DNA of 32,000 nt from an uncultured Actinomycetes bacterium. Lineage in GTDB: Bacteria > Actinomycetota > Actinomycetes > S36-B12 > CAIYMF01. Where the stretch lies: contig CAWJMG010000003.1 of NCBI GenBank assembly GCA_963843975.1, positions 2,640,001 to 2,672,000 of the forward strand, given 5' to 3'. The position numbers and the translations under genes are program-made. The notes beneath the pieces are model-generated. The model saw only the letters and a list, made by a program, of their open reading frames with translations, was not told where the DNA came from and made no database searches. Shown here piece by piece: positions 9,567 through 29,400 of the stretch. Position 1 is the stretch's first letter. Every line of letters begins with the position of its first letter.

Positions 9567-9572
9567 GCGTCC

Positions 9573-9594: not shown

Positions 9595-9611
9595 TGGCGC
9601 GACTGGTCGGC

Positions 9612-9833: not shown

Positions 9834-9856
9834 GGTCGACTTTCCCTTCGGTGGGG

Positions 9857-14741: not shown

Positions 14742-14785
14742 GACGCACTCCTCAACTCGCAGGACGGCTTACCCGCCTCAACTCA

Positions 14786-14802
14786 ATACCCTATGGGGGT
14801 AT
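14786..14802. promoter_or_regulatory. CsoR/RicR-type operator
   Basis: ATACCCTATGGGGGTAT fits TACCC-N5-GGGTA. As I recall, it is nearly identical to the B. subtilis copZA operator core TACCCTACGGGGGTA. Sits 45-61 nt upstream of the ATPase start. Confidence 0.65.
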
Positions 14803-14825
14803 GCCCCGTCATGGCGGGTTCAGGC

Positions 14826-14843
14826 GTGAAGATCTGATCAAGG
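14826..14843 (-). promoter_or_regulatory. Direct-repeat box b (degenerate: CCTTGATcagatCTTCAC on minus strand)
   Basis: GTGAAG at 14826-14831 and ATCAAG at 14837-14842, 11-bp phasing, just upstream of the CsoR-type operator. Confidence 0.4.
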
Positions 14844-14928
14844 CGAGCTACCGAAGGCACCGCCCCGTCCCCCTAAGGACGGACGCCTCGCACGGATCGC
14901 GCCCCCGGGTGGGCTGGAGGAGCTGAGC

Positions 14929-16311
14929 TCAACGAGGCGTAGGCAGGGCCTTGACGAGCGGAGCCTTCCCGAGTGGCGTGCGCTCGATCGCCGGAACCAG
15001 GAGCACATCGACGCGCGCGCGATCGACGCCGAGGTCTTCGAGCGCCCGCACGACGCGATCGTGTGCGAGGCGGTCCTGCGTCGCTCGACCGGCCAGACGG
15101 ACGACGAGGCCGTCGGCCATCTGCTCGACCTGCCAACCATCGGGGGCCAGCGACTCGAGCGCGCTGTGGAAGACCACCGGGTGCACACGCACCGCCCCCG
15201 CTGTACCCGGCAGGGTCAAGGTGTCCTCGGTGCGGCCCTCCACGGCCGCGAGCAGTGCGAAGGGGCGACCGCACCCGCAACTGCCAGGTGCCAGCCGGAC
15301 TGCGTCGGTGAGCTCGTAGCGGATCAGCGGCAGGGTTCGGGTGAACAGCGGTGTGACGAGGAGCCGCGTCCCCGCTGTACCCGGTGGAACCGGCCGATAG
15401 TCGTCGTCGACCGATTCGGCCAGCACGAAGTCCTCGTAGAGGTGCCACCCGCCCTGCTCGCACGTGGACGCGATGCTCGCGGTCTCAGTGGCGGCATAGG
15501 TGTCCACCACGACGCCGGTACCCCAGGCTCGCTCAGCGGCTGCGCGGCCGTCGGCCACCAGCACCTCCGATGCGGCGACAACTTTCGACGGCGCGATGCG
15601 GAGGTCTCCCTCCAGCTGTGCGCCCGCCAGGACACCCAGCATGGAGGCGTAGGAGACGAGGAGCCGAGGCTGGAACTCGTTCAGCGCCAAGACGAGTTCG
15701 CCCAGTGGTGTGCGTGCATCCAGACGCAGCGTCGGGACCAGGCGCGAGCTGAGGCTCGCCCCGACCACGGCCGACTGGTGCGTGGGATTGAGGGAGCTGA
15801 CGAAGGCGGCTCGGACCGGGTTGCGGAGGTCGATGCCGATGCCGGCCCAGTCGTTGACGCGGGCGTACGAGGTCAGGACCTGTGCCCACTCTGCCCTGTC
15901 CCACGCAAGCGCAGCGCGGCGCCCGGTGGTCCCTCCCGTGGCAGCAACCCACCAGCGCCCGCGCGACGCACGACCAGGCTCAAGCTGCCCTCGTTCCTCC
16001 TCGGCCAGCCGATCTACGACGTCGGCCAGACGGAGGGAAGGATTGGTGCAGATGCGGTCCCATTCGGCCATGAGCGTGTACTTGCTGAGCACAGGCAGCT
16101 CGTCCAGTGGAGCATTCCCGAGGCCCTTGAAGGCTGTCTGGTAAAAGGCGGAGTGGCGGGCGGCGTACGCGAGAAGCCGGGCAAGAGCCCGGTCCTGGTG
16201 CCGCAGCATTCGCTCACGGGGCCAGTGGTCGCGGCGCTGGGACCGCGATCGACCGGCAAGGACACGGGTCAGCAGCAGCGGATCGGGCCCCATCGCGACC
16301 TCCTGGCTCAC
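14929..16311 (-). CDS. Adenylate-forming enzyme, phenylacetate-CoA ligase (PaaK)/F390-synthetase-like family
   Basis: 460 aa with WWVAATGGTTGRRA (P-loop-like A3), TYAATE (A5), a conserved C-terminal lid and the overall PaaK-family layout. Substrate is not inferable. Confidence 0.6.
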   Translation of the reverse strand: MSQEVAMGPDPLLLTRVLAGRSRSQRRDHWPRERMLRHQDRALARLLAYAARHSAFYQTAFKGLGNAPLDELPVLSKYTLMAEWDRICTNPSLRLADVVDRLAEEERGQLEPGRASRGRWWVAATGGTTGRRAALAWDRAEWAQVLTSYARVNDWAGIGIDLRNPVRAAFVSSLNPTHQSAVVGASLSSRLVPTLRLDARTPLGELVLALNEFQPRLLVSYASMLGVLAGAQLEGDLRIAPSKVVAASEVLVADGRAAAERAWGTGVVVDTYAATETASIASTCEQGGWHLYEDFVLAESVDDDYRPVPPGTAGTRLLVTPLFTRTLPLIRYELTDAVRLAPGSCGCGRPFALLAAVEGRTEDTLTLPGTAGAVRVHPVVFHSALESLAPDGWQVEQMADGLVVRLAGRATQDRLAHDRVVRALEDLGVDRARVDVLLVPAIERTPLGKAPLVKALPTPR

Positions 16312-16436: not shown

Positions 16437-17546
16437 TCACCCCAGGGGGCGGCCGGCGAAGCTGAATCGCTCACGGCTCCAGGTGTTCCAGGCATCCTGC
16501 ACCTGCACGCCGTTCTCGGGACTGGCCGCCTCCACGAGCTTGCCGCCGCCGATGTACATGGCGACATGCCGTGCACCCTTGAAGTAGAACAGCAGGTCGC
16601 CCGGCTGGAGCTCGCTGACGCTGATGCGCCGGACCTGCTGTGCCTGCGCCAGCGAGTAGGGGGTCAGCGAGACGCCCGCCGCGGCCCAGGCTGCTGTCGT
16701 CAGCTTGGAGCAGTCCCAACTATTCGGCGGCTGCGCGTTGTAGCTGTACGGCTCCCCCACCTGCGCCAGGGCGTAGCGGACGGCCGTCGCAGCCCTTGAC
16801 GACCCGGCCCCGGTCTGCCCGCCGCCACTGGTGCCGCTGCCGCCGTTGCTGCTAGACGAGGGACGGTCGCGGGACGGTCGCTGGGCTACCGCTTCGCGTG
16901 CCTTGCGGGCCGCAACTGCGGCCGCGGTGCGCCGCTGCTCGGCGAGCGCGGCCAGCCGCTTGCGGTCCTCCTCACGCAACTGCGCCACCACGCGCTTGGA
17001 CTGGGCGAGCGCGTCGTTGATCTCACGTCGGTGCGCCGCCATCTGCTCCGCAACCGCCTTAGCCGCCGCCTGCTGCTGCGCCAGGGCAGTCTCTGCCTGC
17101 GCGAGGACTAAGCGCTTCGCCTGCACCCGTCGGAGGGACGTGTTCTGCGCCCGTGCTACCTGCTCTATGGCGCCAGCCCTCTCAAGGTAGTCGGAGGCGT
17201 CGTCAGAGAGAAGGAGGACGAGGCTGGGATCGACGCCCGATCCGCCCATGTACGCCTGGGCCGCCATGCGGTCCGTTGACTCGGCCAGTGCCGCGACTTC
17301 GGCACGGGCCGCATCCGCCCCAGCCCGTGCTCGTTGCACCTTTCGCGTGGCGTCAGCGAGCTTCACCTCGGCCTCGTTGAACTTTTCCGAGGCCGTCTCC
17401 GCCTGCATCTCCAGGGCCTCGAGCTCGGCCTGGGCCTGGGAGAGGCTCTTTCCCGGTTCGGCAGAGCCCGGCGATGACACCGCGAGCGTGGCGACCAGGG
17501 CGACGACGACGGCGCCAGCGGCACCGCGCAGCGTGCGAGCGCGCAC
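16437..17546 (-). CDS. NlpC/P60 (C40) peptidoglycan endopeptidase with N-terminal coiled coil (RipA/RipC-like)
   Basis: GTG 17546 behind GGGAAGG. Signal peptide, long Ala/Glu/Gln coiled coil, C-terminal YSYNAQPPNSWDCSKL...HVAMYIGGGKLVEA (Cys-His C40 core). Confidence 0.85.
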   Translation of the reverse strand: MRARTLRGAAGAVVVALVATLAVSSPGSAEPGKSLSQAQAELEALEMQAETASEKFNEAEVKLADATRKVQRARAGADAARAEVAALAESTDRMAAQAYMGGSGVDPSLVLLLSDDASDYLERAGAIEQVARAQNTSLRRVQAKRLVLAQAETALAQQQAAAKAVAEQMAAHRREINDALAQSKRVVAQLREEDRKRLAALAEQRRTAAAVAARKAREAVAQRPSRDRPSSSSNGGSGTSGGGQTGAGSSRAATAVRYALAQVGEPYSYNAQPPNSWDCSKLTTAAWAAAGVSLTPYSLAQAQQVRRISVSELQPGDLLFYFKGARHVAMYIGGGKLVEAASPENGVQVQDAWNTWSRERFSFAGRPLG

Positions 17547-17559
17547 GTTGAAACCTTCC

Positions 17560-17686
17560 CTTCGGCCGCCTACCGGGTTAGCTGACGGGCTCGGGCTAAG
17601 GGATGCCCTACGCAGCGCGTGGCCGCGATTCGCCCCGGTGGACCTGGGTCCCCGGCTTCGACGTGATCGAACTCGGCGGTGATAAG
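17560..17686 (-). promoter_or_regulatory. c-di-AMP riboswitch (ydaO-yuaA class) in the NlpC/P60 leader
   Basis: Minus-strand RNA: CACCGCCGAGUUCGAUCACGUCGAAGCCGGGGACCCAGGUCCACCGGGGCGAAUCGCGGCC...GCGUAGGGCAUCCCUUAGCCCGAGCCCGUCAGCUAACCCGGUAGGCGGCCGAAGGGAAGG. It contains the GGGGACCCA, CGGGGCGAAUC, GUAGGG and CCCGUCAGCUAACC..GUAGGCG blocks. P1 is CCGCC/GGCGG, running into the RBS. Confidence 0.85.
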
Positions 17687-17757
17687 TGTTGAGACGTTGG
17701 TTCGAACCTACCGTCCAGCCACGGCTCGGGAGAACTTCCGGGGCCCATCCGAGCGGA

Positions 17758-17777
17758 CCTTCATCGAACCTTCATGG
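17758..17777 (+). promoter_or_regulatory. Direct-repeat box c (CCTTCATcgaaCCTTCATGG)
   Basis: CTTCAT at 17759-17764 and 17770-17775. Its flank (CCATCCG.G.GG) is shared with box h. Confidence 0.6.
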
Positions 17778-17876
17778 TCACGAACGGCTCATCCGGCGGT
17801 TCTGACCGAGCCAGCTCGAGCCGTGCTCCGAGTCGCGCGCCCCCCAAGAGCAACGGCGGCGGAGTTTGAGGGCCGG

Positions 17877-18217
17877 ATGTCTCCCCTGTCTTGTTGCCGC
17901 CTTCCGCTGGCACCCGGCTACCTGTCCTGCGCGGCGGGGCTCGGCAGGCCTGATCTCGACGGTCGACCGTCCGGAGCAGGCCAACCTCCACGGCACCGCT
18001 AGTGACGTGCGAACCACGTCCCGTGGGCCTCGGCGTCCCCTTCGATGAACTCTGACTCTGCGCCATCGCACGCTCCGGGCAGCGGGTGGAAGCGCCGTGA
18101 GGGCGAAGTGTCCTCAGGACCGGGAGAGCCCTGTTCACGCTCATCGGACTGCTGGCTTCGGGCATGACGGCGATGGTGTTTGTCGGCGCCGGGAGCGATG
18201 TCCGGTTCGATGGATGA
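17877..18217 (+). pseudogene. Relic of a CcdA/DsbD-family gene
   Basis: Frame 17877-18002 encodes MSPLSCCRLPLAPGYLSCAAGL. This is colinear with the intact CcdA in this window (FFSPCCLPLVPGYLSYVTGL). A different frame (18101-18217) encodes the TM-like RALFTLIGLLASGMTAMVFVGAG. Only ~340 of ~820 nt remain. Confidence 0.5.
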
Positions 18218-18232
18218 AGAATCGATGAAGGC
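18212..18232 (-). promoter_or_regulatory. Direct-repeat box e (GCCTTCATcgatTCTTCATCC on minus strand)
   Basis: ATGAAG at 18214-18219 and 18225-18230, 86 nt upstream of the methyltransferase start. Confidence 0.55.
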
Positions 18233-18317
18233 TTCCGCATATGTGCCCACACGACCTTGTTAACTCTCTCATCGGGTTCAACTATGAGAACTCGCTCACC
18301 CGACACCGAAGGCGCTC

Positions 18318-18878
18318 ATGAACCTTATCCACAGGCGTTACTGCCGCTCCCAGCGCTGGGGGGGCCACGTGTCCCGGCTCCTCCCTTGGGCGACGGACGG
18401 TGTGGACCTGACAGGCGCAGACGTGCTGGAGCTGGGCAGCGGCCCCGGTCTGACGACCGACTGGCTCGCCCCACGGTCGGGCACTCTCACCGCGTTGGAG
18501 TACGACGAGACAGACGCGACGTCGCTCGCCGCCCGAGCACCCGCCGTAACGGTGATCCACGGCGACGCGCGATCCGTGCCACTACCCGATGCCAGCGTGG
18601 ATGTGGTGGTCTGCTTCACGATGTTGCATCACCTGCCCAGCCCGACCGCACAGGACGAGCTGTTCGCTGAGGCAGCCCGGATCCTCCGGCCCGGAGGGAC
18701 CTTCGCCGGCAGCGACAGCCGGTTCGGTCCGTTGTTCGCGATCGCCCACATCGGCGACACCATGACACTCGTGGATCCGGCCGGTCTCCCCGTGCGCCTT
18801 CGGACCGCCGGGTTCGCAGACGTGAGCACAGACATCGCCGGTCGTGCTGTGCGCTTCCGCGCTCGACGTCCCGCCTGA
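18318..18878 (+). CDS. Class I SAM-dependent methyltransferase
   Basis: Motif I VLELGSGPGLTT, then LEYDE, VDVVVCFTMLHHL and LRPGGTF (Methyltransf_11-like). Confidence 0.8.
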   Translation: MNLIHRRYCRSQRWGGHVSRLLPWATDGVDLTGADVLELGSGPGLTTDWLAPRSGTLTALEYDETDATSLAARAPAVTVIHGDARSVPLPDASVDVVVCFTMLHHLPSPTAQDELFAEAARILRPGGTFAGSDSRFGPLFAIAHIGDTMTLVDPAGLPVRLRTAGFADVSTDIAGRAVRFRARRPA

Positions 18879-18947
18879 TGGGCGACAGCGGCGCACCGAC
18901 ACGACTTCTTCACGGGCACACGCTGGATACCTCATTGCATCCAGCCG

Positions 18948-19477
18948 ATGAAGGCCGTGATGATGGCGCCCATGGCGCCGATCGCGGACGGTGCGCTGTC
19001 CGCGCTGGCCGACGCCGGCCAGGGTCTGGACTCCCGGGCTGCGGATCACCGCCTCGTGCTCGCCTGCCGAACGGCCGGGGCGGTCGCCATGACAGAGATC
19101 CCACTGGTTATGTTCGCGGCCATCGTCTTGGGTGCTGCGGCACCCCTCGTGGTCGCCGGGGTGCTCTGTCCGCAGGTCTGGCCGTAGGCGCTGGCGTTCG
19201 GGGTCACCACCGCGACCTACGTGCTCGTGGGCCTGATGCTAGGACCGCTGTTTGGTCGCGTCACCGCCCACATGGCAGTCCTCCCGACTTCCCCGACCGG
19301 GGCACCCGGCAAGTTCCCTGATCGCCGGCCACAGCCCTGCGTTCGCGCCGTATGTCCCGGTTACGGCGCCGGGGAGGTCCACCTGGACGACGCCCTCACG
19401 GCGTCGTACGACCAGACCGGCCCGTGTTGCTGGCGATGCTCTGGGTCCTGGGGTTGACGGTCGCGTTCGGGCTCTAA
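18948..19477 (+). pseudogene. Possible decayed membrane-protein gene (in-frame TAG plus frameshift)
   Basis: The high-GC3 frame ...EIPLVMFAAIVLGAAAPLVVAGVL... stops at TAG 19185-19187 and resumes in the same frame (ALAFGVTTATYVLVGLMLGPLFG). Another frame ends PVLLAMLWVLGLTVAFGL* at 19475-19477. Family not recognised. Confidence 0.3.
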
Positions 19478-19582
19478 GTGGCACACGACCCCCGCAACCC
19501 CCAGCGGCCGCTGCCGAACTCCACGCGCTCAGCCTCAGGTGACGACGGGTGAGTCGCCTCGCGGAGGAGGAGGCCAACGACA

Positions 19583-21175
19583 TCAGTTCATGCTCTGTCG
19601 GCGTCGACGCCAGCCCAGCAGAAGTGGCAGGAGCACCGCCAGTGCTCCCCCGGCAGCGAGGAAACCTCCGGCCGCCCCTCCGAACCTCACCGCAGGCGTC
19701 ATCCCCTCGAGGATGTCCACCCGGCCGCTCACCCATCCCGAGCGGCCGTCCTCAAGACTGCCGACGAGCACGCCGTCCGGTGAGATGATGGCACTCACGC
19801 CGGTCGTCGAGGCCACCAGCACGGCGCGCCCCGTCTCCATAGCCCGGAACCGCTCGATGGCCAGCTGTTGGAGCGGCTCGGCACTTCCCGCATAGGTGGC
19901 ATTGTTGGACGGCACGAGGATGAGCCCCGCGCCCCCTCGAACCGCCTCCTGAACCTTGTCGTCGAAGGCCACCTCGTAACAGATCAGAACTCCTGCCTCG
20001 ACCTGACCAACGTCCAGAGTTGGGGGGCCGTCACCGGCGATCATGTCCCGCGGCACCCGCGACACCGACGGGACAGCGGCAGCGAGGAGCGACCTGAAGG
20101 GCACGTACTCGCCAAAAGGAACCAGCCGGCTCTTGCTGTACTCCGGTCCCGGGCCTGACTCGGGCCGCCAGAGGATGGCCTGGTTGAGCAGGCGCCCGGA
20201 TCCGTCAGGTGACTCGGTAAGAGCGCCCACGACCACGGGCGCTCCGACCGCCACCACGGCGCCCTCGACCGTCCGGCTGGCCCAGTCGTCCTGGAGCGGA
20301 TCGATGTCGGCCGCGTTCTCAGGCCAGACCACTAGGTCGAGCACCTCCGTCGAACTGGCTGCCAGCTCTCGCGTCACACGGGCATGAGATTCAAGCACCG
20401 CCCGCGACTGCGACCCTGACGTACTGGGCGGCTGCGGCCCGCCCTGAACCACAGCCACGAGCAACGAATTTGAGGACTCGCGCTGCTGCCCCGGCGATCT
20501 CACCGCTTCAAGCCAGGGTCCAGGAATCGCAAGGGCGACCACGACCACGCCCACCGCTGCAACGACTGAGCCCGGCCGGCGCACACCCGCGAGCAGCACT
20601 CCGGCGAGGCAGGCGCCTGCTGCAGCGAGGACGAAGCTCAGGCCGTACACCCCGAGGTAGGGGATCAACCACTCCCAGGGGCCGTCCACCGCGGTGAAGC
20701 CGAGGCGTGCCCAGGGGAACCCACCGAACGGCCAACCCGACCGCAGCCACTCGACGAGCACCCAGACCAGCGGGACCAGCAGCAGCCCCGCACGCTGGCG
20801 CAGTATGTAGGACATGAAGGTGAGCAGCAGAGACCACCACACCGCGAAGTACGCCACGACGCCGATGAGCGCTTCAGGGGCCACCGCCGCGAGCCAGTTC
20901 ACGGCAGTGAGGGCAAACGCGGAGCCGGCCAAGGCGCCGATGACGGCGGTCTGGCGCGGTCTGAGCCGGGCACCCGACACGGAGAGCACGAGCAGTGCCA
21001 CGCCCGCCGGAGCCGCCCACCACCAGGCTGTCCCGGGGAACGCCGTCGCTGTCAGCACCCCGCCGAGCACCGCGCCGACGAGGCGCGGAGCGGTCCGACG
21101 TCGGCCTCGGGGCGTGCTCACCCGCCGACTGCTGGGGAAGGCCGGTCTGCGCAGCGTGACCGTGGTGACCGGCAC
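19583..21175 (-). CDS. lnt: Apolipoprotein N-acyltransferase
   Basis: Polytopic N-terminus with EWLRS..PFGGFPW, then a CN-hydrolase domain with VVWPE, YSKSRLVPFGEYVP and ICYEVAF (Glu-Lys-Cys triad). The GTG start overlaps the upstream stop by 1 nt. Confidence 0.9.
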   Translation of the reverse strand: MPVTTVTLRRPAFPSSRRVSTPRGRRRTAPRLVGAVLGGVLTATAFPGTAWWWAAPAGVALLVLSVSGARLRPRQTAVIGALAGSAFALTAVNWLAAVAPEALIGVVAYFAVWWSLLLTFMSYILRQRAGLLLVPLVWVLVEWLRSGWPFGGFPWARLGFTAVDGPWEWLIPYLGVYGLSFVLAAAGACLAGVLLAGVRRPGSVVAAVGVVVVALAIPGPWLEAVRSPGQQRESSNSLLVAVVQGGPQPPSTSGSQSRAVLESHARVTRELAASSTEVLDLVVWPENAADIDPLQDDWASRTVEGAVVAVGAPVVVGALTESPDGSGRLLNQAILWRPESGPGPEYSKSRLVPFGEYVPFRSLLAAAVPSVSRVPRDMIAGDGPPTLDVGQVEAGVLICYEVAFDDKVQEAVRGGAGLILVPSNNATYAGSAEPLQQLAIERFRAMETGRAVLVASTTGVSAIISPDGVLVGSLEDGRSGWVSGRVDILEGMTPAVRFGGAAGGFLAAGGALAVLLPLLLGWRRRRQSMN

Positions 21176-22581
21176 TAGCTGCGGCCAACCGACCGTGTGC
21201 GGGCCAGGGTGATCACGAAGGGTCGCACTGGGTCATTCACTGTCTGTTCGTGCAGGATGTCGAGTCCGAGCGCACGCGCAGCGCGGCGGTGCAACGCCCG
21301 ACCGTCGGCGGCCCCGTGCAGCATGAGGAAGTCCCGCTGCTCGCCCGGCGTGGCTGCGAGAGAGCCGAGCGCATCGCGTATGGCCCGAGCGGTGACGAGG
21401 TAGTACAGGACCTCTGCGAGGACGACGCAGTGCGGTTGCTCGGCGTTCGCCAGCCGTGCGGCGACCTCGTCAGGCGGTACGACGTGGGCGTTGCCGAACC
21501 CCCGCGTCCTGCGACGGGCCACGTCTAGGGCTCGTGCGGAGACGTCGGTGCCCAGGACGATGGCCGCTGGGCAAGCCCGCGCCAGGGCCTCCACGTTGTG
21601 CCCGTCGGCGCAGCCGACCTCCACAATCGTCTTATAGCGTCCTCGTAGCGAGGCCACCAGATGCTGCTGCTTGCGCCGTTCGTAGGCAGCCGTGTAGTCC
21701 CACGGGTCAGCCGACACGGAAAACATGGAGTCGAATACGCGGCGGCGCACGAGTCCCCTGCTGGGTTCAGGTGCCAGCCCCAGCAAGGCGAACGCTGCCC
21801 GGTGGGCCAGCCGGGCGCCATCTCGCGCCAACGCGGAGTCCGAGTCGGGCGCCGGCACGGGCCGACGGGCGAGCATCAGCAGGACTGCCCCGCCGATCAA
21901 CCACCCGGCCCACCAGAGCACGACACCGGCCAGGCCGACATCGACCGGCAAGCCGGTCGCCCCTACAAGCAAGACGAGGGGGAAGGAGGCGAGCGCGACC
22001 CCGGCCTTCCATGAGGCGCCCAGGACGTGGACGAGCCGAGCGGCGATCACGATGGTTGCCACCTCGAACGGGATCAGTGCCGTTGCATCCGAGGCAGTCG
22101 CCACGCTTACTACAGCGGTGGTGATCGCGATCAGCACCGCCATCTCTGCGCTGATCGCCAGGCCGACCAGGTGCGGCGACCTACGTGCCGCGGTCGTACC
22201 TCGCACCTCGGTGCGCAATCCCCCCAAGCGGAGGACTGCAGCCGCGGACACGGTCACGGCGCCGATCGCGAGGAGCACGCCGATCGCCGTCCGATCGCCA
22301 CCCAGGACCACTGCTGAGGTGGAGGCCACGACAACCAGGACTGCGACGAGTGCCGCGTACGGCCTCGGCCTCGACACGACCGCCGGACCACCACCGGGCC
22401 GCCGAGCACGATGGGCGCCGGCGATCAACGCTTCAGGCCAGGTGAGGGCAGGCTCCATCGCCCGGGTGAGCAGTGCAGGCTCGGCCACCCTGGCGGCGGC
22501 GGAGGCAACGAGTGAAACGCCGACCAGCGCCTCGGAACGGACGACCAGGGCCGCCGCATCGACGAGCACCCACGCGCTCAC
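21175..22581 (-). CDS. Fusion protein: ~6-TM membrane domain + NodS-family SAM methyltransferase
   Basis: N-terminal ~270 aa has six hydrophobic helices. The C-terminal SADPWDYTAAYERRKQQHLV...IVEVGCADGHNVEALA...LGTDVSARALDVARRR matches the NodS-type DPW..Y..YE..K plus motif I. Coupled to genes on both sides (4-nt and 1-nt overlaps). Confidence 0.7.
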   Translation of the reverse strand: MSAWVLVDAAALVVRSEALVGVSLVASAAARVAEPALLTRAMEPALTWPEALIAGAHRARRPGGGPAVVSRPRPYAALVAVLVVVASTSAVVLGGDRTAIGVLLAIGAVTVSAAAVLRLGGLRTEVRGTTAARRSPHLVGLAISAEMAVLIAITTAVVSVATASDATALIPFEVATIVIAARLVHVLGASWKAGVALASFPLVLLVGATGLPVDVGLAGVVLWWAGWLIGGAVLLMLARRPVPAPDSDSALARDGARLAHRAAFALLGLAPEPSRGLVRRRVFDSMFSVSADPWDYTAAYERRKQQHLVASLRGRYKTIVEVGCADGHNVEALARACPAAIVLGTDVSARALDVARRRTRGFGNAHVVPPDEVAARLANAEQPHCVVLAEVLYYLVTARAIRDALGSLAATPGEQRDFLMLHGAADGRALHRRAARALGLDILHEQTVNDPVRPFVITLARTRSVGRS

Positions 22582-22904
22582 GAACGGTCCGCGCCGTGAC
22601 GGGCGGCTGCGGTGCCGCCTCGGGTGCTCACAGCGAACGAGCAGTCCACGATCACCATCTTCCCGGCCGCCCCCAGCGGCCTGAGAGCTTCGGCGAAACC
22701 GCCGGCGTAGCCAGCATCAGCCGGTTGCTTGTCCAGGAGCAGCGCCCGCCCGCACTCGCTGGCATCGATGTCGCCCGCGGCGACTCGGCGGTCGAGCAAC
22801 GGAAGCGGGGGCTCGAACGACCGACAGTGCGAGGGCCAGTTGGCAGCCCAGAGCACCGCCCGCACAGCAAGAGGGACCGCCGCTCCGGACAGAGGCAGCA
22901 TCAT
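22578..22904 (-). CDS. Hypothetical 108-aa protein, first gene of the MT-lnt operon
   Basis: Start MMLPLSG (cat 22902-22904) behind GAGGAG with 4-nt spacing. High GC3. Its PADAGYAGGF segment is faintly GT-A/DUF2064-like. The frame stays open upstream (see findings). Confidence 0.5.
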   Translation of the reverse strand: MMLPLSGAAVPLAVRAVLWAANWPSHCRSFEPPLPLLDRRVAAGDIDASECGRALLLDKQPADAGYAGGFAEALRPLGAAGKMVIVDCSFAVSTRGGTAAARHGADRS

Positions 22905-23018
22905 GCCGCTCCTCGACAGCCAGCCGTACCAGCCCCTCAACCCGCTTCTCCAGACATGTTTCCTCTCACCATTTGTCTGGTCAGCGTGAGCGAACGACGT
23001 CAAGCCCGGGCAGGGATT

Positions 23019-23039
23019 CGATGAAGATTCGACGAAGCC
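23019..23039 (-). promoter_or_regulatory. Direct-repeat box f (GGCTTCGTcgaaTCTTCATCG on minus strand)
   Basis: ATGAAG at 23021-23026 and ACGAAG at 23032-23037, 115 nt upstream of the 22904 start. Near-identical to box a. Confidence 0.55.
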
Positions 23040-23210
23040 GCAGGCGAGGCCGTGGCTCGGCTCGGTGGCCGGTCGGGGCAGTTCGAATCCGTCCGACGCC
23101 GCGCATGTCGGGTTCAGCGTGGTGATGCGCCGGCTGGCAGCCATCTTGGGCGAGGTGACAACGCTGTGCTCGGGGACATCCGTCACGGCCTCGACGACCG
23201 GCATGGTGCA

Positions 23211-23336
23211 CTAGCCGTTGCCGTCGTCAATCTCACACCTGGATCCGGCGCAGTGCGCGGGCTTCGGAGTGTCGAAGTCCCCGATGCCCGTCGGGCTTAC
23301 CGTGAACAGGTCCGCTTGCTTCTTGAGAACTAGCAT
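23211..23336 (-). CDS. Candidate 41-aa Cys/His peptide ORF (or the head of a TAG-interrupted pseudogene)
   Basis: ATG 23336 to TAG 23211-23213: MLVLKKQADLFTVSPTGIGDFDTPKPAHCAGSRCEIDDGNG. 33 of 41 codons end in G/C. No convincing SD. Same frame as the ORF starting at 23204. Confidence 0.25.
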   Translation of the reverse strand: MLVLKKQADLFTVSPTGIGDFDTPKPAHCAGSRCEIDDGNG

Positions 23337-23393
23337 CAAAGTGCGGAACCGAATGTTGGACTGGAGGTGATCTCAAGCGGGTGTTCGAGAGCT

Positions 23394-24544
23394 TCAACTG
23401 TTCGCGGGTTGACCGGCCGTTGCTCCCTTTGCCGTTGCGGGCCGTCCCTCGGCGAGAGGGATGGTGAAGGTAAAAGTGGCGCCCAGGCCCGCGCCCTGAC
23501 TGTCCGCCACCAGACTGCCCCGATGATCGGTCACGATCGCTCTCGCGATTGTCAAGCCGAGCCCGCTGCCGCTCCCGTCCAAGCTTCGTCGAGAGCTATC
23601 CACCCGGTGGAACCGTTGGAACACCGATTCGAGCTGATCATCAGGGATCCCCTCACCGTTGTCGCTGACGGCGACCCACGCCCCGTCGCGGTCTTCGCTC
23701 ATGCGGACGCTGACGGCTCCCCCGGGTGAATGGCGGAGGGCGTTGTCCAGCAGGTTGGAGAGCACCTGCTGAAGCCTCACTGCGTCGGCATCGACCGTGA
23801 CCTCCCACGGGGAAAGTTCGAGGGACAGGGCCACCCCTGCCGCTTCGTAGCGTGGCCGCGCCGCCGCCACGGAACCGGAAACGATGTGATTGAGGCTGGT
23901 GGGCTCCAGGTGGATGCCCAGCGCGTGCTCCTCGGCCAGTGCGACCTCACGCAGGTCACCGGACAGGCGCCGCAGCCGCTCGATCTGCTCGCGCATCGTG
24001 GCGTACGACGGCGCGTCGCCCGCCACGACACCGTCCTCGAGGCCGTCGACGTATGCCTCGAGTGTCGCCAGCGGAGTTCGCAGTTCGTGGGCGAGGTCCG
24101 ACAGCAGACTGCTGCGGCTCGTCTCACTGTCTGCGGCTTGTGAGCCATTCGTTCGAACGCGTCGGTGAGCCGCTCGATCTCGCTGCTGAAGGGGTCCACC
24201 GGAACGCTCACGTCGAACCTGCCCGATGCGAGGGTCTCGGCGGCGTCGGCCAACTCTTCCACCGGGTGCGCGACGCGACGGACGATGAACCACGACACCA
24301 GGAACGCCGCGACCAACGAGACGCCGGTCGCGACCAGCAAGGAGATCGCGAACGAAGTAGCGAAGGCCTGCTCGGCGTGCTGCAGGACGGTCGGGGAATC
24401 CTCACCCGTTTCGGCGAGGTGATGATGAAAGAGTCCAGGGCCGACGATCACCGCGGACCCGATCAGTGCGGCAGCGCCCGCGCCTATGACCAGGGTCTGG
24501 GCTGCCATCAGCCGCCGGGCGAGGCTCGGTCGCTGCCCGTTCAT
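23394..24544 (-). pseudogene. Sensor histidine kinase (CopS-like architecture), interrupted by a -1 frameshift
   Basis: The N-terminal frame (ATG 24544, ATGA overlap with the RR stop) has TM1, the loop GPGLFHHHLAETGEDSPTVLQHAEQ, TM2 and HAMP ...EIERLTDAFERMAHK. The H-box LLSDLAHELRTPL plus N, G1 (DNGEGI) and G2 (GSGLGL) boxes are in another frame. Span is 1151 nt, not a multiple of 3. Junction is ~24126-24139. Confidence 0.75.
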
Positions 24545-25245
24545 CCCCGACCCATCCCATAGCCGACGCCGCGGACGGTTCGGACGAACCGGGGCTCGTT
24601 TGCCTCGTCGCCGAGCTTCTTGCGCAGGTGCCCGATGTGGACGTCCACGACGTGCTCGTCCCCGTACCACTCGCCGCCCCAAACACCTTCGATGAGCTGG
24701 CGACGGGAAAAGGCCGCGTGGGGTCGTGCGGCCATAACCGCAAGGAGGTCGAACTCGGTGCGTGTGAGCTCGACGTCGCCGCCGTCGACCAAGACGACCC
24801 GGGCCTCGGGATCGATAACGAGCCCACCGACGGTAAGTGGGGGCCGGTCCTGCTGCTCCTCCTTCTGCCGAGGCCGACGCAGCATTGCTTTGGTGCGGGC
24901 GATCAACTCGCGTGGCGAGAACGGCTTCACGATGTAGTCGTCCGCGCCGACTGCTAGGGCGACCACCTTGTCCGTCTCGTCGTCTCGAGCGGTGAGCATG
25001 ATGACATAGGCGTCGGTGAATTCGCGGACACGCCGGCACACCTCTACCCCGTCGAATCCAGGCAGCATGAGGTCCAGCACGATCAGGTCCGGCCGGGTCG
25101 CGGCGGCCTGCGCCACCGCGCTAGGACCGTCGTGGGCCAGGATGACGACAAATCCCTCCTTCTCCAGGTAGCTCGCGACGATCTTGGCCAGCGGTACCTC
25201 GTCGTCCACGACCAGCACAGTTCCCTGGGAGTCCAGCACGCGCAT
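24541..25245 (-). CDS. OmpR/PhoB-family response regulator
   Basis: MRVLDSQGTVLVVDDE...DLIVLDLMLPGFDG...ADDYIVKPFSPRELIAR plus a winged-helix C-terminus (ELTRTEFDLL...VRGVGYG). An alternative GTG start lies at 25275. Confidence 0.9.
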   Translation of the reverse strand: MRVLDSQGTVLVVDDEVPLAKIVASYLEKEGFVVILAHDGPSAVAQAAATRPDLIVLDLMLPGFDGVEVCRRVREFTDAYVIMLTARDDETDKVVALAVGADDYIVKPFSPRELIARTKAMLRRPRQKEEQQDRPPLTVGGLVIDPEARVVLVDGGDVELTRTEFDLLAVMAARPHAAFSRRQLIEGVWGGEWYGDEHVVDVHIGHLRKKLGDEANEPRFVRTVRGVGYGMGRG

Positions 25246-25326
25246 CTCCTCTGTCTCGTTCACGCATCTCACCACCCGAAGACCGGATGAGACAGCCCCA
25301 GCCCCCTCGACGCCTCAGAAGACATG

Positions 25327-25348
25327 GGATCTTCATCCTGCGCCCCGG
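25327..25348 (-). promoter_or_regulatory. Half-box i with a flank shared with box g (CCGGGGCGCAGGATGAAGATCC on minus strand)
   Basis: A single ATGAAGATCC unit plus the same CCGGGGCGCA flank as box g, ~80-100 nt upstream of the RR start. Confidence 0.35.
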
Positions 25349-25351
25349 TCG

Positions 25352-26200
25352 CTACCCGGCTCCGCGGACGTTGACGGACCCTGTTGGATCGGAAGGCGAC
25401 GGGCTCGACGTGGAGCGCGGGCGCGACGGGTACCCGGTGTCGAAGTGCATGTAGTCGGGAACCTTGATGTCCTGCCAGACCCATCCGCGCGCGGTGAACA
25501 GGTCGACGACTGCGGACCCGGCGCGGATGACGCCACCGCCTTCGGTTGCGCGCGCGTAGCGGGTCGAAGGCACCCAGCACGCGCAACGCGGGTCCTTCCA
25601 AGGGTTCTGGAGCGGATTGATGTCCACGGCGCGGCCGTTCGCGTGTGGCGAGTCCGCTACAGGCGCGTTGATCTGGCTGGCGCGTCGGCAGTTGAAGGCG
25701 GAGGTGTTGTTGGCGCGCAGGCTCCGATAGACGTCGCCCCCGAACCGCTCCACCGGATCCATTCGCTCGATGGGGAAGCCGACCTGGAAGAGTGACGAGA
25801 AGATCGTCACCATGTCGGCTGCGCTGTCGGCATGGACTATGAGTTGGCCGCGCCCGATGCCGCCCTGGAACGTGTGGAAGTTGATGTCGACCCGTCGCAG
25901 GTCCACCTGTCCGACGGGGCAGCCGGACCGCCAGGTGCCGCTCTTGACGACCGTCTCCCATTGGCGATCCGAGATGCGGCTGACCGTCGCATCCGCCTGC
26001 ACCGGCCGCGTCGGTGATTTCGTCGGGGACACGTCCTGCGTGAAGGCTGGCGTGCCGGAAGTCCCCTCGGTTGCCGGATAGGTCGACCCACCGCCAGTTG
26101 GACGCCCTGTGGATGACACCAGCCAAGCGCCCACGGCTGCGACAATCACAACGGCCACGACCAGCGCGGTCCCGACCCGCACCCGTGTGGCCCGATTCAT
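25352..26200 (-). CDS. M15-family zinc D,D-/L,D-peptidase (VanY/LdcB-like), membrane-anchored
   Basis: Start MNRATRVRVGTALVVAVVIV (ATGA overlap with the GNAT stop). Zn ligands SPHANGRAVDI (H-x6-D) and PDYMHFD. Confidence 0.8.
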   Translation of the reverse strand: MNRATRVRVGTALVVAVVIVAAVGAWLVSSTGRPTGGGSTYPATEGTSGTPAFTQDVSPTKSPTRPVQADATVSRISDRQWETVVKSGTWRSGCPVGQVDLRRVDINFHTFQGGIGRGQLIVHADSAADMVTIFSSLFQVGFPIERMDPVERFGGDVYRSLRANNTSAFNCRRASQINAPVADSPHANGRAVDINPLQNPWKDPRCACWVPSTRYARATEGGGVIRAGSAVVDLFTARGWVWQDIKVPDYMHFDTGYPSRPRSTSSPSPSDPTGSVNVRGAG

Positions 26201-26883
26201 CGCCGCTCGGTTCCGTCCAGGCACTTCACCATCCGTACTAGTCGACGTCCGTCGCGACTCGTGGCCTCGTCCTCCGTAGTCCATCCCCGTCGCTGGTACA
26301 GCCCGGTTGCCACCGTGTTGACCGTCTCGTTGACCAGGTGAACCCTGGAGGCTCCGGACGCTGCGGCTTGCTGGAGGAAGGTGTCATGAAGTGCTGATCC
26401 GGCGCCCCGCAGGCGGTGACCTGGTGCCACGAAGATGGACAGAAGCTCGGCTGACCTCATCTCGCCTTCCGTCCGTTCGCCGCGAGTGTCGCCGCCGGCA
26501 CGGACTCCTCGGGCCAGTCGACGCAGGTACCACAGCGACCACACCCGCAGGAACTCCCCCCACAGTCCGGGGCGACGACGCAGGGCGGCGGCGCTCGCCC
26601 GCGCCAACGGCGACGCTGCGTGCCGGGCCTTGTGCGTGCGAAGCCGCTCGTCGTCCAGGGAGCCGAGCAAGTAACCGATCACCAGGCCCGTGCGAGGGTC
26701 CACGGCGGAGAAGGACGCAACGGCGGGGGACTTCAGGTGCTCACGTACGTCACTGACCATGAAGTCGGGACCGAGCCGTGAGTAGAAGCAGTGCGGGAAG
26801 TTCTGGAGGTGCCACTCCACCACCGCGGGTACGTCCACGGGGCGCATGGGCCTCACCTGCACGACGGTGCTGCGTTCGATCAT
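26197..26883 (-). CDS. GNAT-family N-acetyltransferase
   Basis: Start MIERSTVVQVRPM (cat 26881-26883, GGAG upstream). Acetyl-CoA motif IFVAPGHRLRGAGSAL and C-terminal LYQRRGW. The ORF could extend to 26961. Confidence 0.7.
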   Translation of the reverse strand: MIERSTVVQVRPMRPVDVPAVVEWHLQNFPHCFYSRLGPDFMVSDVREHLKSPAVASFSAVDPRTGLVIGYLLGSLDDERLRTHKARHAASPLARASAAALRRRPGLWGEFLRVWSLWYLRRLARGVRAGGDTRGERTEGEMRSAELLSIFVAPGHRLRGAGSALHDTFLQQAAASGASRVHLVNETVNTVATGLYQRRGWTTEDEATSRDGRRLVRMVKCLDGTERR

Positions 26884-27011
26884 GCGCGTGCTCCAGTGGG
26901 CGCGAAAGCAGGGACCGGAACGGCAACGATGCAGCCGCCATTCGAGCGCGGAACGCCTCACCCACCGGTAAGGAGAGCCTCACACGAGCCCGCACCCAGG
27001 ACGGCCGGGGC

Positions 27012-27032
27012 GCATGAAGGTTCGATGAAGAT
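27012..27032 (-). promoter_or_regulatory. Direct-repeat box g (ATCTTCATcgaaCCTTCATGC on minus strand)
   Basis: ATGAAG at 27014-27019 and 27025-27030, in the divergent gap between the GNAT-M15 genes and the M23 peptidase gene. Confidence 0.6.
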
Positions 27033-27194
27033 CCTTGCAGTCGCTGCCTGCGCTTCCACTCGGAGCAGGAGCCGATACTCCATTCCCTGCAGGCTATATC
27101 AGCGGATCGCCCAATGCGCGGGGTGAGTGCTACGGTGCCATCCGTCACGTCACCGACGCGATGCAGGAGAGGGACGCCGAGTGCTGCCCGCCCA

Positions 27195-27342
27195 CTCCTG
27201 CCGAGTTCTGCGCACCGCTTTGGGCAGGAGTGGGGGACCCACGTAGCGGACGCCCACCCAGGCGCCTAGGGGTGAAGCAGGGCGCAGCCCTGCCGGTCAG
27301 GATCCGACGACCGAACCCGACAGCTAACCCCGCAGGCGAGTC
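27195..27342 (+). promoter_or_regulatory. c-di-AMP riboswitch (ydaO-yuaA class) in the M23 peptidase leader
   Basis: CCUGCCGAGUUCUGCGCAC...GGAGUGGGGGACCCACGUAGCGGACGCCCACCCAGGCGCCUAGGGGUGAAGCAGGGCGCAGCCCUGCCGGUCAGGAUCCGACGACCGAACCCGACAGCUAACCCCGCAGGCGAGUCGGGAAGAGG. It has the same conserved blocks as the 17560-17686 copy. P1 is CCUGC/GCAGG, followed by the RBS and ATG 27356. Confidence 0.85.
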
Positions 27343-27355
27343 GGGAAGAGGTCCC

Positions 27356-28153
27356 ATGGATTCGTCACGTCGAGACGCCCGCCGATTCGGCCGCATCGGC
27401 TCGATCGCACTCACCACCGGTGTGCTGACAGGGCTTCTCGCCTTGTCCGGCGCAGCCGTACCGGCCTCCGCCGCACCATCTCCGAGCGGAACGCACCAGG
27501 TGGCGCGACCTGCCTGGGCGACCATGCCCGCCCTGGAACCAGGCGCACAAGGCCGGGCGGTGCAGGTTCTGCAGGGTCGACTCGGCGTGATCCAGTCCGG
27601 ATGGTACGGACCGATCACGCTGCGCAAGGTCAAGGCCTTCCAGTCCAGCAGGGGGCTTCGGGCTGCGGGCTATGTGGGTCCTCTCACCTGGCGTGCCCTG
27701 CTCACCATCCCCAGCAGGGACGCGACGGCGTCCCGCTCGTCGACGCGGTCCGCGATGCCAGCTGGCCGCGTCTGCCCGGCTCCGGGCGCGGGATTCGGGC
27801 AGGGATGGGGAGTGCCTCGCGCCGGCGGGAGGCTCCACCAGGGAGTGGACATGCCGGGACGCCGCGGCAGCGCCATCGTTGCGATCGAAGACGCCAGGGT
27901 GCTGCGCGAGGGGCGCCAGAGCAACGGGGCCCTACGCATCGTCCTTCAGGGCTCGAGCGGCGCCAAGTTCTACTACGGTCACATGGACAAGGACCTCGTC
28001 CGGCCTGGCCAGCGCGTGGCCCGCGGCCAGAAGATCGGTCTGATGGGTGATAGCGGGAGTCCTGGCGCGGTCCACCTGCACTTCGAGTACTGGCGCTCTG
28101 GTGGCGAGTCTGCGGCAGTCGATCCAGCAGCGCTGCTGCGCAGCATCTGCTGA
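27356..28153 (+). CDS. M23 metallopeptidase with N-terminal peptidoglycan-binding domain
   Basis: Start MDSSRRDARRFG behind GGGAAGAGG. Signal peptide, PG_binding_1-like GRAVQVLQGRLGV...GPLTWRALL, and M23 motifs HQGVDM and GDSGSPGAVHLHFE. Confidence 0.85.
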   Translation: MDSSRRDARRFGRIGSIALTTGVLTGLLALSGAAVPASAAPSPSGTHQVARPAWATMPALEPGAQGRAVQVLQGRLGVIQSGWYGPITLRKVKAFQSSRGLRAAGYVGPLTWRALLTIPSRDATASRSSTRSAMPAGRVCPAPGAGFGQGWGVPRAGGRLHQGVDMPGRRGSAIVAIEDARVLREGRQSNGALRIVLQGSSGAKFYYGHMDKDLVRPGQRVARGQKIGLMGDSGSPGAVHLHFEYWRSGGESAAVDPAALLRSIC

Positions 28154-28202
28154 CTCCGGCTGGCCGCGGGGCACCGCCCCCGTCCCGTGGCCAGCCGGGC
28201 AC

Positions 28203-28221
28203 GTTGACCGAACCTTCACAG
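28203..28221 (+). promoter_or_regulatory. Weak direct-repeat box j (GTTGACcgaaCCTTCACAG)
   Basis: The second unit CCTTCAC is good. The first unit GTTGAC matches only 3/6 and could equally be a -35 hexamer. Confidence 0.3.
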
Positions 28222-28303
28222 GCTGGCCGCGGAGATCGATACCCGAGCCCCCGATGGTGGAGACCGGAGATCGGCGAAGGGTCGGTCCCGCTCGGGAGTG
28301 ATC

Positions 28304-28891
28304 ATGATCAGCCACGACGGACCAGCCACCCGCCAGTTCGAGGAGCCGTCCGCCCGGACCAGCCCGCGCGCCCGCCGTCCCCGACGGCCGGTTCGGTCGA
28401 TCTCACCCGCAAGTGCTGGCATTGGGCTCCTCGCGACTGCGGCCATGGCGACGCTCTACGTCACCGTGCTCACGTGGGCGTCAGGATGGGGCCATGTCGG
28501 CGACCAGTTGCGCGCGTCGGGTCCGCTCGTGCCGGTGCTCTGGGTCGTCTTCGGGGTCCAGGTGGCCTTGATAGCCGATCTGCGTAGAAGGGCCCACCCC
28601 ACTGGTGGTGCGACGGCAGTCGATGCAGCGGGGGCGGGCGCGACCACCGTGGGCATGCTCGCCTGCTGCGCTCACCACGCCGTCGAGCTGCTTCCCCTCG
28701 CCGGCCTGGCTGGCGCTGCAGGTGTCGTCGCCGGGGCTCAACAGCAATTGCTGTACCTCGCTCTCGCGGTCAGCTTGGCGGGACTCGTCTGGACCGCGCA
28801 CCGATGGAGCCGGGCTGGGCACGCCGTGCCCTCCGAAGCCTTTACAGTTCCCACCGAGCGCAAGGATGCGATGCTCGCATGCGATCGTTGA
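28304..28891 (+). CDS. 4-TM membrane protein with intramembrane CCAHH motif
   Basis: ATG 28304 behind GGGAG (GTG 28298 also possible). Four predicted helices, the third carrying TTVGMLACCAHHAVELLP. No family recognised. Confidence 0.55.
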   Translation: MISHDGPATRQFEEPSARTSPRARRPRRPVRSISPASAGIGLLATAAMATLYVTVLTWASGWGHVGDQLRASGPLVPVLWVVFGVQVALIADLRRRAHPTGGATAVDAAGAGATTVGMLACCAHHAVELLPLAGLAGAAGVVAGAQQQLLYLALAVSLAGLVWTAHRWSRAGHAVPSEAFTVPTERKDAMLACDR

Positions 28892-29310: not shown

Positions 29311-29340
29311 CGAGGGTCGGCTCGTCCATCCGCGGTCGCA

Positions 29341-29360
29341 CCTTCATCAAACCTTCATGG
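29341..29360 (+). promoter_or_regulatory. Direct-repeat box h (CCTTCATcaaaCCTTCATGG)
   Basis: CTTCAT at 29342-29347 and 29353-29358, 42 nt upstream of the predicted resA start. Confidence 0.6.
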
Positions 29361-29400
29361 CACTTGGCGACCGACACACGCGCCGGGCGCCTAGCCTTCA

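Follow-up and report, generated by a model that had tools for sequence, protein, structure and literature searches.

An accessory, probably copper-induced apolipoprotein N-acyltransferase operon with a membrane-fused NodS-family methyltransferase in an uncultured actinomycete

We analyzed a 32,000-nt stretch of contig CAWJMG010000003.1 (assembly GCA_963843975.1, positions 2,640,001 to 2,672,000 of the forward strand) from an uncultured Actinomycetes bacterium, hereafter called the window, and in it an operon that ends in a gene for apolipoprotein N-acyltransferase (Lnt). As the preliminary description of this DNA had stated, three genes overlap by 4 nt and 1 nt; they are co-directional on the minus strand (Table 1). 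The first is a small open reading frame (ORF); the second, here termed the fusion gene, encodes a membrane domain joined to a methyltransferase domain; the third is the Lnt gene. Read from the sequence, the junction between the small ORF and the fusion gene was GTGA (4-nt overlap at 22578-22581), and the junction between the fusion gene and the Lnt gene was TAGTG (1-nt overlap at 21175). A scan of positions 19300-23450 for promoter and terminator consensus sequences gave no match, including no full sigma-70 consensus promoter. Throughout, labels of the form L0xx denote related contigs or loci and P0xxx denote fusion-family proteins; the window copy served as the reference.

The naming of the third gene as an apolipoprotein N-acyltransferase proved correct. 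Its product matched TIGR00546 at 269.7 bits, above the equivalog cut-off of 132.9, and contained the Pfam domains LNT_N (5.3e-26) and CN_hydrolase (3.2e-19). When aligned to E. coli Lnt (6NWR), the Glu-Lys-Cys triad and the PFGE and CYE motifs were conserved (window/E. coli: VVWPENA/IWPESA, YSKSRLVPFGEYVP/YNKNHLVPFGEFVP, and LICYEVA/AICYEII), the triad residues of the window copy being the E of WPE, the K of YSKSRLVPFGE, and the C of LICYE. Lipoproteins are the probable substrate of this enzyme. In a neighbor-joining tree, drawn without bootstrap or other support values, the fusion-linked Lnts formed one clade, and those of Streptomyces, Rhodococcus, the Frankiales ("ppm2"), and an Lnt-GT2 (Ppm1) fusion fell outside it. 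The fusion partner was rare: only 16 word-index matches were found in 5.8 billion clusters, and a profile of the membrane domain retrieved 38 clusters (E ≤ 1e-3) from 1.84 billion representatives, nearly all of them 470-570 amino acids (aa) long and of the same architecture. The separation from ppm1/ppm2-type actinobacterial Lnts, the rarity of the partner family, and a setting that is not core synteny agree with the earlier suggestion that this lnt is an accessory one, and an accessory, probably copper-induced lnt is well supported.

Thirteen loci were compared (the window, L003, L011, L041, L042/43, L004-6, L007/8, L012, L013, L014, L044, L045, and L046), across which identity ranged from 42 to 100% for Lnt and from 35 to 100% for the fusion protein. 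The fusion gene adjoined the Lnt gene in all 13. It was directly upstream and co-directional in 12, and directly downstream and convergent in L045. Linkage of an NlpC/P60 gene to the fusion gene was seen in about seven of the 13, and in distant relatives the two were translationally coupled by a 1-nt overlap. The trio that had been described did not stand as a conserved unit: the small ORF was degenerate, was uncoupled in relatives, and gave way to NlpC/P60 in more distant ones. A universally conserved trio was rejected on the same grounds, NlpC/P60 replacing the small ORF in most relatives and the whole module being rare.

Wherever the flanks were long enough, the pair lay in islands containing Cu-type P-type ATPases (Cu-ATPases), multicopper oxidases, CopD, DUF305, and cation-efflux genes. 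These islands also carried DsbD/redoxin/VKOR/DsbA genes and peptidoglycan enzymes (NlpC/P60, M23, M15 of the VanY-like type, VanW, and Acyl_transf_3). The Cu-ATPase of the window reached 573.8 bits with TIGR01511 (cut-off, 397). In Intrasporangium calvum, the fusion gene followed a Cu-ATPase and a multicopper oxidase, without an adjacent Lnt. GC content was 0.66-0.70 in the island half of the window (17000-32000, with the boxes and the operon) vs. 0.70-0.77 in the half containing the PBP1A and dCTP-deaminase genes (1-16000), which is consistent with horizontal acquisition; an integrase fragment in L042 was also taken as a sign of it. A tblastn search with the fusion protein against PLSDB, made for plasmid carriage, returned no match. 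A second Lgt gene (PF01790) was observed in L004 (13029-14279), and also in L005 and L006. There it runs convergently to the Lnt gene, whose end it overlaps; its presence beside Lnt points to the lipoprotein pathway. The metal island of these three loci also carries a patatin-like lipase.

Upstream of the operon lies a candidate operator, box f, which the preliminary description had noticed and which is a real element: it is one of five copies in the window of the consensus CTTCATCGAAYCTTCA/CTTCATCGAAYCYTSM (≤2 mismatches), where 0.08 were expected, and none of 100 shuffles gave five matches. On the opposite strand, box f reads TGAAGGTTCGATGAAG. It equals the CopR operator of Corynebacterium glutamicum (TGAAGATTTgaTGAAGATTT), which was validated by electrophoretic mobility shift assay and mutation (PMC3140484), at 15 of 20 positions; they have the 11-bp period and the GA linker in common, and their mismatches are A/T to G/C changes only. 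The units behind the five boxes were (i) NlpC/P60 (RipC-like) with an F390-synthetase-like gene and two heavy-metal (Cu-type) P-type ATPases, (ii) a small soluble methyltransferase, (iii) the Lnt operon, (iv) a divergent pair comprising GNAT-M15-regulator-kinase genes and an M23 peptidase gene, and (v) a redoxin-DsbD pair. L011, L042, and L043 retain the box and a following TTGAC ahead of the orthologous operon; in L011, the flanks have diverged around the conserved box and CTTGAC. Further boxes lie upstream of NlpC-methyltransferase-Lnt (L007, L012) and between DsbD and NlpC (L003). Over 190 kb of related loci, 12 matches were counted, compared with 0.1 in shuffles. Two boxes of the window are parts of a 35-nt inverted repeat (17741-17775 and 18214-18248; 71% complementary) within the 770 nt that separate the divergent NlpC/P60 and soluble methyltransferase genes.

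An OmpR-type regulator gene and a kinase gene were adjacent to the module in the window and in most loci, and regulators 55-77% identical to that of the window adjoined it in L003, L007, L011, L015, and L016. In the window, the kinase gene has a 1-nt deletion between 24136 and 24135 (a missing T; AAGC-CGCAG vs. AAGCTCGCAG) relative to L002, an otherwise identical metagenomic contig with an intact 383-aa kinase gene, and the HAMP part and the HisKA/HATPase part are consequently in different frames. From the likeness of the operator, the conservation of the box before orthologous operons, and the adjacent regulator and kinase, we infer on good grounds that the operon is under copper control through a CopR-type operator, and copper would be expected to induce it. 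The link to copper drawn earlier is thereby strengthened, the relatives with enough flank being found among copper genes.

These data also bear on another explanation, according to which the gene is an ordinary housekeeping lnt beside unrelated genes and the boxes belong to a regulator of general envelope stress, not of copper. Neither the regulator nor the kinase had a specific equivalog in NCBIfam (MtrA, YycF, CseB, and BaeSR scored alike, which resolves the two only to the OmpR/BaeS/MtrB level), many members of the regulon are cell-wall hydrolases, and no second lnt of the same genome turned up among the 120 listed of 2,477 Lnt homologues. The rare and patchy distribution of the module, a clade separate from ppm1-linked Lnts, the copper genes around loci with enough flank, the lower GC content, and the resemblance of the operator to the CopR site speak against this explanation, and we consider it improbable.

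Table 1. Positions in the window of the operon genes, the candidate operators, and the regulatory genes.
Feature	Position	Strand	Remarks
Lnt gene	19583..21175	-	530 aa; paralogue of the copper-island, methyltransferase-linked clade
Fusion gene, whole	21175..22581	-	468 aa; membrane part and methyltransferase
Fusion, aa 1-290	21712..22581	-	Seven hydrophobic helices and amphipathic linker; divergent LPG_synthase_TM (PF03706)
Fusion, aa 291-468 and stop	21175..21711	-	NodS-family class I S-adenosylmethionine (SAM) methyltransferase domain, predicted cytoplasmic
Small ORF	22578..22940	-	Putative, divergent SHOCT-type single-pass membrane protein
Box f, CTTCGTCGAATCTTCA	23022..23037	-	CopR-type candidate operator upstream of the operon; direct repeat CTTCG-N6-CTTCA, 11-bp period
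TTGACG	22998..23003	-	Candidate -35 hexamer, 18 nt downstream of box f
OmpR-family response regulator	24541..25275	-	Response_reg and Trans_reg_C; CopR-like candidate binder of the boxes
CopS-like histidine kinase	23394..24540	-	Two transmembrane (TM) helices, short His-rich loop, HAMP, HisKA, HATPase; frameshifted
CopR-type box	17759..17774	+	Between NlpC/P60 (16437-17546, -) and methyltransferase gene (18318-18878, +)
CopR-type box	18215..18230	-	88 nt upstream of methyltransferase gene (18318-18878, +)
CopR-type box	27015..27030	-	Divergent region between GNAT-M15-response regulator-histidine kinase genes (-) and M23 peptidase gene (+)
CopR-type box	29342..29357	+	Upstream of operon of redoxin (lipoprotein, lipobox LTSC) and DsbD/CcdA

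A different account of the islands gives the fusion gene a role in cell-wall chemistry. Copper would poison exposed catalytic cysteines and thiols, the islands would supply copper-induced replacements (NlpC/P60, Lnt, and Lgt) together with thiol-redox repair, and the fusion protein would, for example, methylate a polyprenyl-linked peptidoglycan precursor, being tied to Lnt by co-regulation only. Mycobacterial lipid II carries methylated carboxylates, to which, to our knowledge, no enzyme has been assigned. The translational coupling of NlpC/P60 to the fusion gene in distant relatives, the recurrence in the islands of VanW, M15 (VanY-like), M23, and Acyl_transf_3, the presence of DsbD/redoxin/VKOR/DsbA genes, and the block that copper imposes on lipoprotein maturation in E. 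coli (PMC6538781) all favor this account. The fusion gene was, however, more tightly linked to Lnt (13/13) than to NlpC/P60 (about 7/13), and if the two were only co-regulated, an Lnt clade tracking the fusion gene would not be expected. We regard the account as rather unlikely, and more credible than the housekeeping one.

The C-terminal part of the fusion protein is, as first described, a NodS-family methyltransferase. Pfam NodS (PF05401) matched aa 291-409 at 42.2 bits, above the gathering score (GA) of 24, and both the DPW..YERRK motif (DPWDYTAAYERRK, aa 292-304) and motif I (EVGCADGHN, aa 321-329) were present and invariant in the family. Judged by its sequence, the domain is not a NodS orthologue: the NodS equivalog (NF041650) gave 49.8 bits, short of the cut-off of 300, and no nodA, nodB, or nodC gene was found in the window. 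A search of the PDB with the family profile ranked a Pseudomonas syringae protein (4ISC, 8.8e-15) and NodS (3OFJ, 4.8e-14) ahead of the next match (7.6e-7), and P0172 alone found NodS at 2e-12 (next match, 7e-4). With Foldseek against the PDB, NodS (3OFK) was the top match for both models, approximately tenfold ahead of other class I enzymes. Two signature peptides of the family retrieved Bradyrhizobium nodS genes.

Related taxa contain further combinations with this domain. In Ornithinimicrobium metagenome-assembled genomes (L021, 4442-5905; L022, 7718-9166), a PIG-L family de-N-acetylase is fused to a NodS-like methyltransferase; PIG-L generates free amines, and this deacetylate-then-methylate layout recalls NodB/NodS. 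In Intrasporangium calvum, a PIG-L gene stands on its own close to the fusion gene (L016, 12470-13150). In P0149 (L010, 277-2367; 696 aa), the membrane domain and the NodS-like methyltransferase are followed by a C-terminal GNAT acyltransferase, so that the protein is a triple fusion. The PIG-L fusions and the C-terminal GNAT favor an amine acceptor, and a lipid amine may be what the enzyme methylates.

The N-terminal part of approximately 240 aa was hydrophobic. The earlier count of six TM segments did not stand; we count seven hydrophobic segments, and the identity of the domain, a divergent PF03706, changes the mechanistic reading. PF03706 was matched by four of seven fusion-family members (best E, 1.2e-4). 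The TM-domain profile retrieved P0170, P0172, and P0173, of which P0170 and P0172 exceed the gathering score of PF03706 (50.5 and 60.6 bits vs. 33.4), with the full length of that model covered, and carry the same NodS-like domain. An hhalign comparison of the family with the P0170/P0172 group gave 98.3% probability (E, 2.4e-14) over 142 columns, covering TM4-7 and the linker, and only the C-terminal half of PF03706 was detectably conserved in the fusion. An AlphaFold model of the fusion protein (38 sequences; pLDDT, 86.8; pTM, 0.83) combined a Rossmann domain with seven helices of membrane length and two amphipathic ones. By these profile matches, the membrane domain is a divergent MprF-type flippase-like domain (PF03706), and it may translocate lipid.

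The preliminary description had proposed that the NodS-like enzyme N-methylates the alpha-amino group of lipoproteins, which Lnt then N-acylates. The attraction of this order of events lies in Nod factor synthesis, where NodS methylates an amine that is later acylated, and the NodS-family membership of the domain and the strict linkage of the fusion gene to Lnt are in keeping with it. The loops rich in Lys and Arg (aa 31-73, with seven such residues; 120-136, with four; 238-290, with nine) alternate with short, uncharged loops, and by the positive-inside rule this pattern places the methyltransferase domain in the cytoplasm, as does its need for SAM. The domain is thus predicted to be cytoplasmic, whereas the lipoprotein alpha-amine arises only outside, after Lsp cleavage (PMC12345273; PMC6538781), so the domain should be unable to reach it. 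Nor was an export signal or an extracytoplasmic methyl carrier evident. Methylation of the alpha-amino group is therefore the part of the earlier proposal that failed, and we judge it very improbable indeed.

The reading that we favor, tentatively and with a little less than even confidence, is that of a copper-stress envelope-remodeling operon in a horizontally spread actinobacterial copper island, under CopRS-type control and combining an accessory Lnt with an MprF-like methyltransferase. Under copper stress, the CopRS-type two-component system would drive the operon via box f. The cytoplasmic NodS-family domain would methylate a lipid embedded in the membrane at its head group, most plausibly at an amine, and the PF03706-like domain would hold the methylated lipid or translocate it to the outer leaflet. 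At the outer face of the membrane, the accessory Lnt would N-acylate the free alpha-amino group of diacyl lipoproteins, and would thereby either keep lipoprotein maturation going when copper attacks it or remove copper-binding amines. The net effect would be fewer free amines, which are copper ligands, at the membrane surface, a dedicated lipid partner for Lnt, or both. The amines of phosphatidylethanolamine bind Cu2+, so capping the amines of lipoproteins and lipids would make one coherent defense.

Several published observations speak for this scheme. Copper interferes with lipoprotein acylation in E. coli, where lnt was first found as cutE (PMC6538781). The mobile lit2 of Listeria is induced by copper through a CopRS system, and N-acylation was proposed to remove a copper-binding site (PMC7387801; PMC12345273); the precedent of a lipoprotein transacylase in Firmicutes copper operons, to which the preliminary description had alluded, was given correctly. 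An outward-facing lipoprotein N-transferase of Bacillus draws on a lipid carrier that is loaded in the cytosol and, as the authors propose, flipped across the membrane (PMC12345273).

The same genes would also fit a new lipid pathway, in which the fusion protein N-methylates and flips a non-protein amine lipid and a specialized Lnt N-acylates that lipid, or takes an acyl group from it, outside. We know of no N-methyl/N-acyl amine lipid of this kind, the Lnt scores at the standard equivalog level with all catalytic motifs kept, and the Lgt of L004-L006 points to a lipoprotein substrate. The adjacency in all 13 loci with a separate, co-evolving Lnt clade, the GNAT behind the methyltransferase in P0149, the PIG-L/NodS-like fusions, and the lipid loaded in the Bacillus cytosol and proposed to be flipped for outward N-transfer (PMC12345273) lend the pathway some credit. 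It appears to us unlikely, somewhat more so than the replacement of copper-poisoned enzymes and less so than a housekeeping lnt. If true, it would mean a copper-induced, amine-free membrane surface, NodS/NodA-type logic reused for metal defense, and a second class of substrate for the Lnt family.

A number of observations weigh against the copper-stress remodeling scheme. No boxes (≤2 mismatches) were found in L004, L013, or L044-L046. The frameshift in the kinase gene may leave the regulon of this strain mis-regulated, or may be an assembly error. The window fusion protein gave no direct match to PF03706 even at E values up to 10, and where other family members and PF03706 proteins share the motif P-x-PGG-LG-x-D, the window subclade reads GASWKAGVALASF; given the loss of the PGG motif and the missing Pfam match, the membrane domain may be only an anchor. 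The lead of NodS in the fold search was small. The reaction may instead be an O-, S-, or C-methylation. Wider members of the fusion family in L018 and L009 lie outside copper contexts. The lack of a second lnt among the listed homologues counts on the same side.

The small ORF could be assigned to a family only through its relatives, and its true start is uncertain: an ATG at 22904 gives 108 aa, a TTG at 22940 gives 120 aa, the NCBI annotation has 107 aa, and other gene callers give 208 aa, the longest version reaching 23204. Orthologues in L011, L041, and L042/43 are 83-85 aa long and consist of MMYDWNGGWGSW, a TM helix, and then LDRRLA(S/A)GE(V/I)DADxY; identity to the window copy was 45-58% for those of L011, L041, and L042. 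Pfam and NCBIfam scans of the window copy were empty, and SHOCT (PF09851) was unmatched in the window copy and in L011. The closest orthologue, in L041 (58% identical), matched PF09851 at E 8.7e-6 and 25.8 bits, below the GA of 27, and the window motif LLDRRVAAGDIDASE aligned with it. The ancestral ATG (22957, behind GAGAGGAAAC) has come to lie out of frame by +2 in the window copy, whose TM helix has gained Pro and Arg residues and whose frame continues approximately 45 codons beyond the ancestral stop to the start of the fusion gene. This extension is unique to the window, and relatives have approximately 125 nt between the two genes; the first of the two overlaps is therefore peculiar to the strain. 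The window sequence of the small ORF was found alike in two independent short-read assemblies. The gene may be a decayed SHOCT-type membrane protein, perhaps one still decaying. The 208-aa version was rejected: only its aa 91-164 are conserved in L011, and its upstream part shares wobble positions with a plus-strand frame, so third-position GC content cannot support it.

Other features of the islands were recorded. A GNAT acetyltransferase gene followed by a gene for an M15_4 (VanY-like) peptidase was found beside the module both in the window (25352-26961, minus strand) and in L046 (9245-10797), a relative at 48% identity. VanW genes recurred in L004, L007, L044, and L046. The window Cu-ATPase gene (12114-14741, minus strand) contains approximately 14-17 tandem 9-nt units (14304-14456) encoding a tripeptide repeat between the HMA domain and the membrane part; the repeat, acidic and His-rich, could serve as an additional metal-binding tract. 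The box-preceded soluble methyltransferase (18318-18878, plus strand) scored best with the "DVU_1556 family methyltransferase" model, and the 460-aa gene after NlpC/P60 (14929-16311, minus strand) with "F390 synthetase-related" and then "DVU_1553 family AMP-dependent CoA ligase", all below cut-off; DVU_1556 and DVU_1553 belong to one uncharacterized Desulfovibrio cluster. A similar soluble methyltransferase lies beside DsbD in L041. The box-preceded redoxin (29401-30051, plus strand) is TlpA/ResA-like, and its lipobox, AVLVLTSC (Cys44), predicts that this protein, too, is a lipoprotein substrate. In the short-read contig L001 (7507-7698), a frame change near the C-terminus of NlpC/P60 relative to the window (16437-17546) lengthens the called protein from 369 aa to 444 aa; the P60 domain is complete in the window copy. 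The dCTP deaminase and penicillin-binding protein of the window have almost no other sequences in their 90% clusters, which indicates that the host lineage is poorly sampled.

For the many ways in which bacteria modify lipoprotein N-termini, copper has been proposed as the selective force, mainly from a single case in Firmicutes (lit2) and from old E. coli cutE genetics. A lipoprotein N-acyltransferase, sometimes with Lgt, under a CopR-type operator in the copper islands of an unrelated second phylum would give this idea independent comparative support. The locus also provides a first functional context for the rare architecture of a PF03706 flippase-like domain with a NodS-like methyltransferase. 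More broadly, it suggests that copper stress triggers remodeling of the membrane surface, and that membrane-surface amines, those of lipoproteins and perhaps of lipids, are a copper liability that is actively capped. Intrasporangium calvum PheN6, a cultured carrier of a fusion relative (without the adjacent Lnt), offers a model locus.

Among known systems, actinobacterial Lnt/Ppm2 is paired with Ppm1 in M. smegmatis and C. glutamicum and fused with it in M. tuberculosis Ppm1, and second Lnt paralogues occur in Streptomyces and M. bovis BCG. The present operon resembles that pair in having an Lnt with LNT_N and CN_hydrolase domains next to an enzyme predicted to modify a membrane lipid in the cytoplasm. 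It differs in its partner, which is not a GT2 mannosyltransferase but a SAM methyltransferase carrying a flippase-like membrane domain; in its Lnt, which falls in a clade apart from ppm2 and the Lnt-GT2 fusion; and in its copper-island context. With MprF, the lysyl-phosphatidylglycerol synthase/flippase, the fusion protein shares a PF03706-type membrane domain, a (predicted) cytoplasmic domain that modifies a lipid head group, and a connection with envelope defense. Its catalytic domain, however, is a NodS-like class I methyltransferase, the aminoacyl-phosphatidylglycerol synthase domain of MprF is not present, only the C-terminal half of PF03706 is detectable, and the PGG hallmark is lost in the window subclade. 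By profile and fold, Bradyrhizobium NodS (3OFJ/3OFK) is the closest solved relative of the methyltransferase domain, with a common DPW...YE(R)xK N-terminal motif, E(V/I)GCA.G motif I, and AEVLYYL; identity is approximately 20-37% and confined to the core, and the domain here is membrane-fused, without nod genes nearby.

The CopRS regulon of C. glutamicum (PMC3140484) is similar in its OmpR-type regulator and kinase, its direct repeat TGAAG(A/G)TT(T/C)-GA-TGAAG, its horizontally acquired island, and its divergent target operons with a Cu-ATPase, a thioredoxin-like lipoprotein, and secreted proteins. There, a single operator is present, whereas at least five are predicted here, and the putative regulon of the window is enlarged with peptidoglycan hydrolases, Lnt, and methyltransferases. 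The lit2 gene of mobile copper operons in Listeria and Enterococcus (Armbruster et al. 2019, as cited in PMC7387801 and PMC12345273) is likewise a gene for lipoprotein N-terminal acylation in a mobile copper island with a CopRS-type system, extra to the core Lgt-Lsp pathway. An identity with Lit or Lit2 was rejected, as the acyltransferase here is an Lnt of the CN-hydrolase family, for which a triacyl and not a lyso-form lipoprotein is predicted; the likeness is functional and contextual only. The two also differ in phylum (Actinomycetota here), in the standing of copper induction, which we infer for the present operon, and in the obligatory PF03706-like/NodS-like fusion partner, without counterpart in the lit2 operons. 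Accessory Lnts and copper-induced lipoprotein remodeling were each known separately. A search for the Lnt-fusion pair or for a PF03706-methyltransferase fusion found nothing relevant in the literature, and relative to the literature searched, the novelty lies in finding the two together in Actinomycetota, in the CopR-type operator, and most of all in the obligatory PF03706-like/NodS-like partner.

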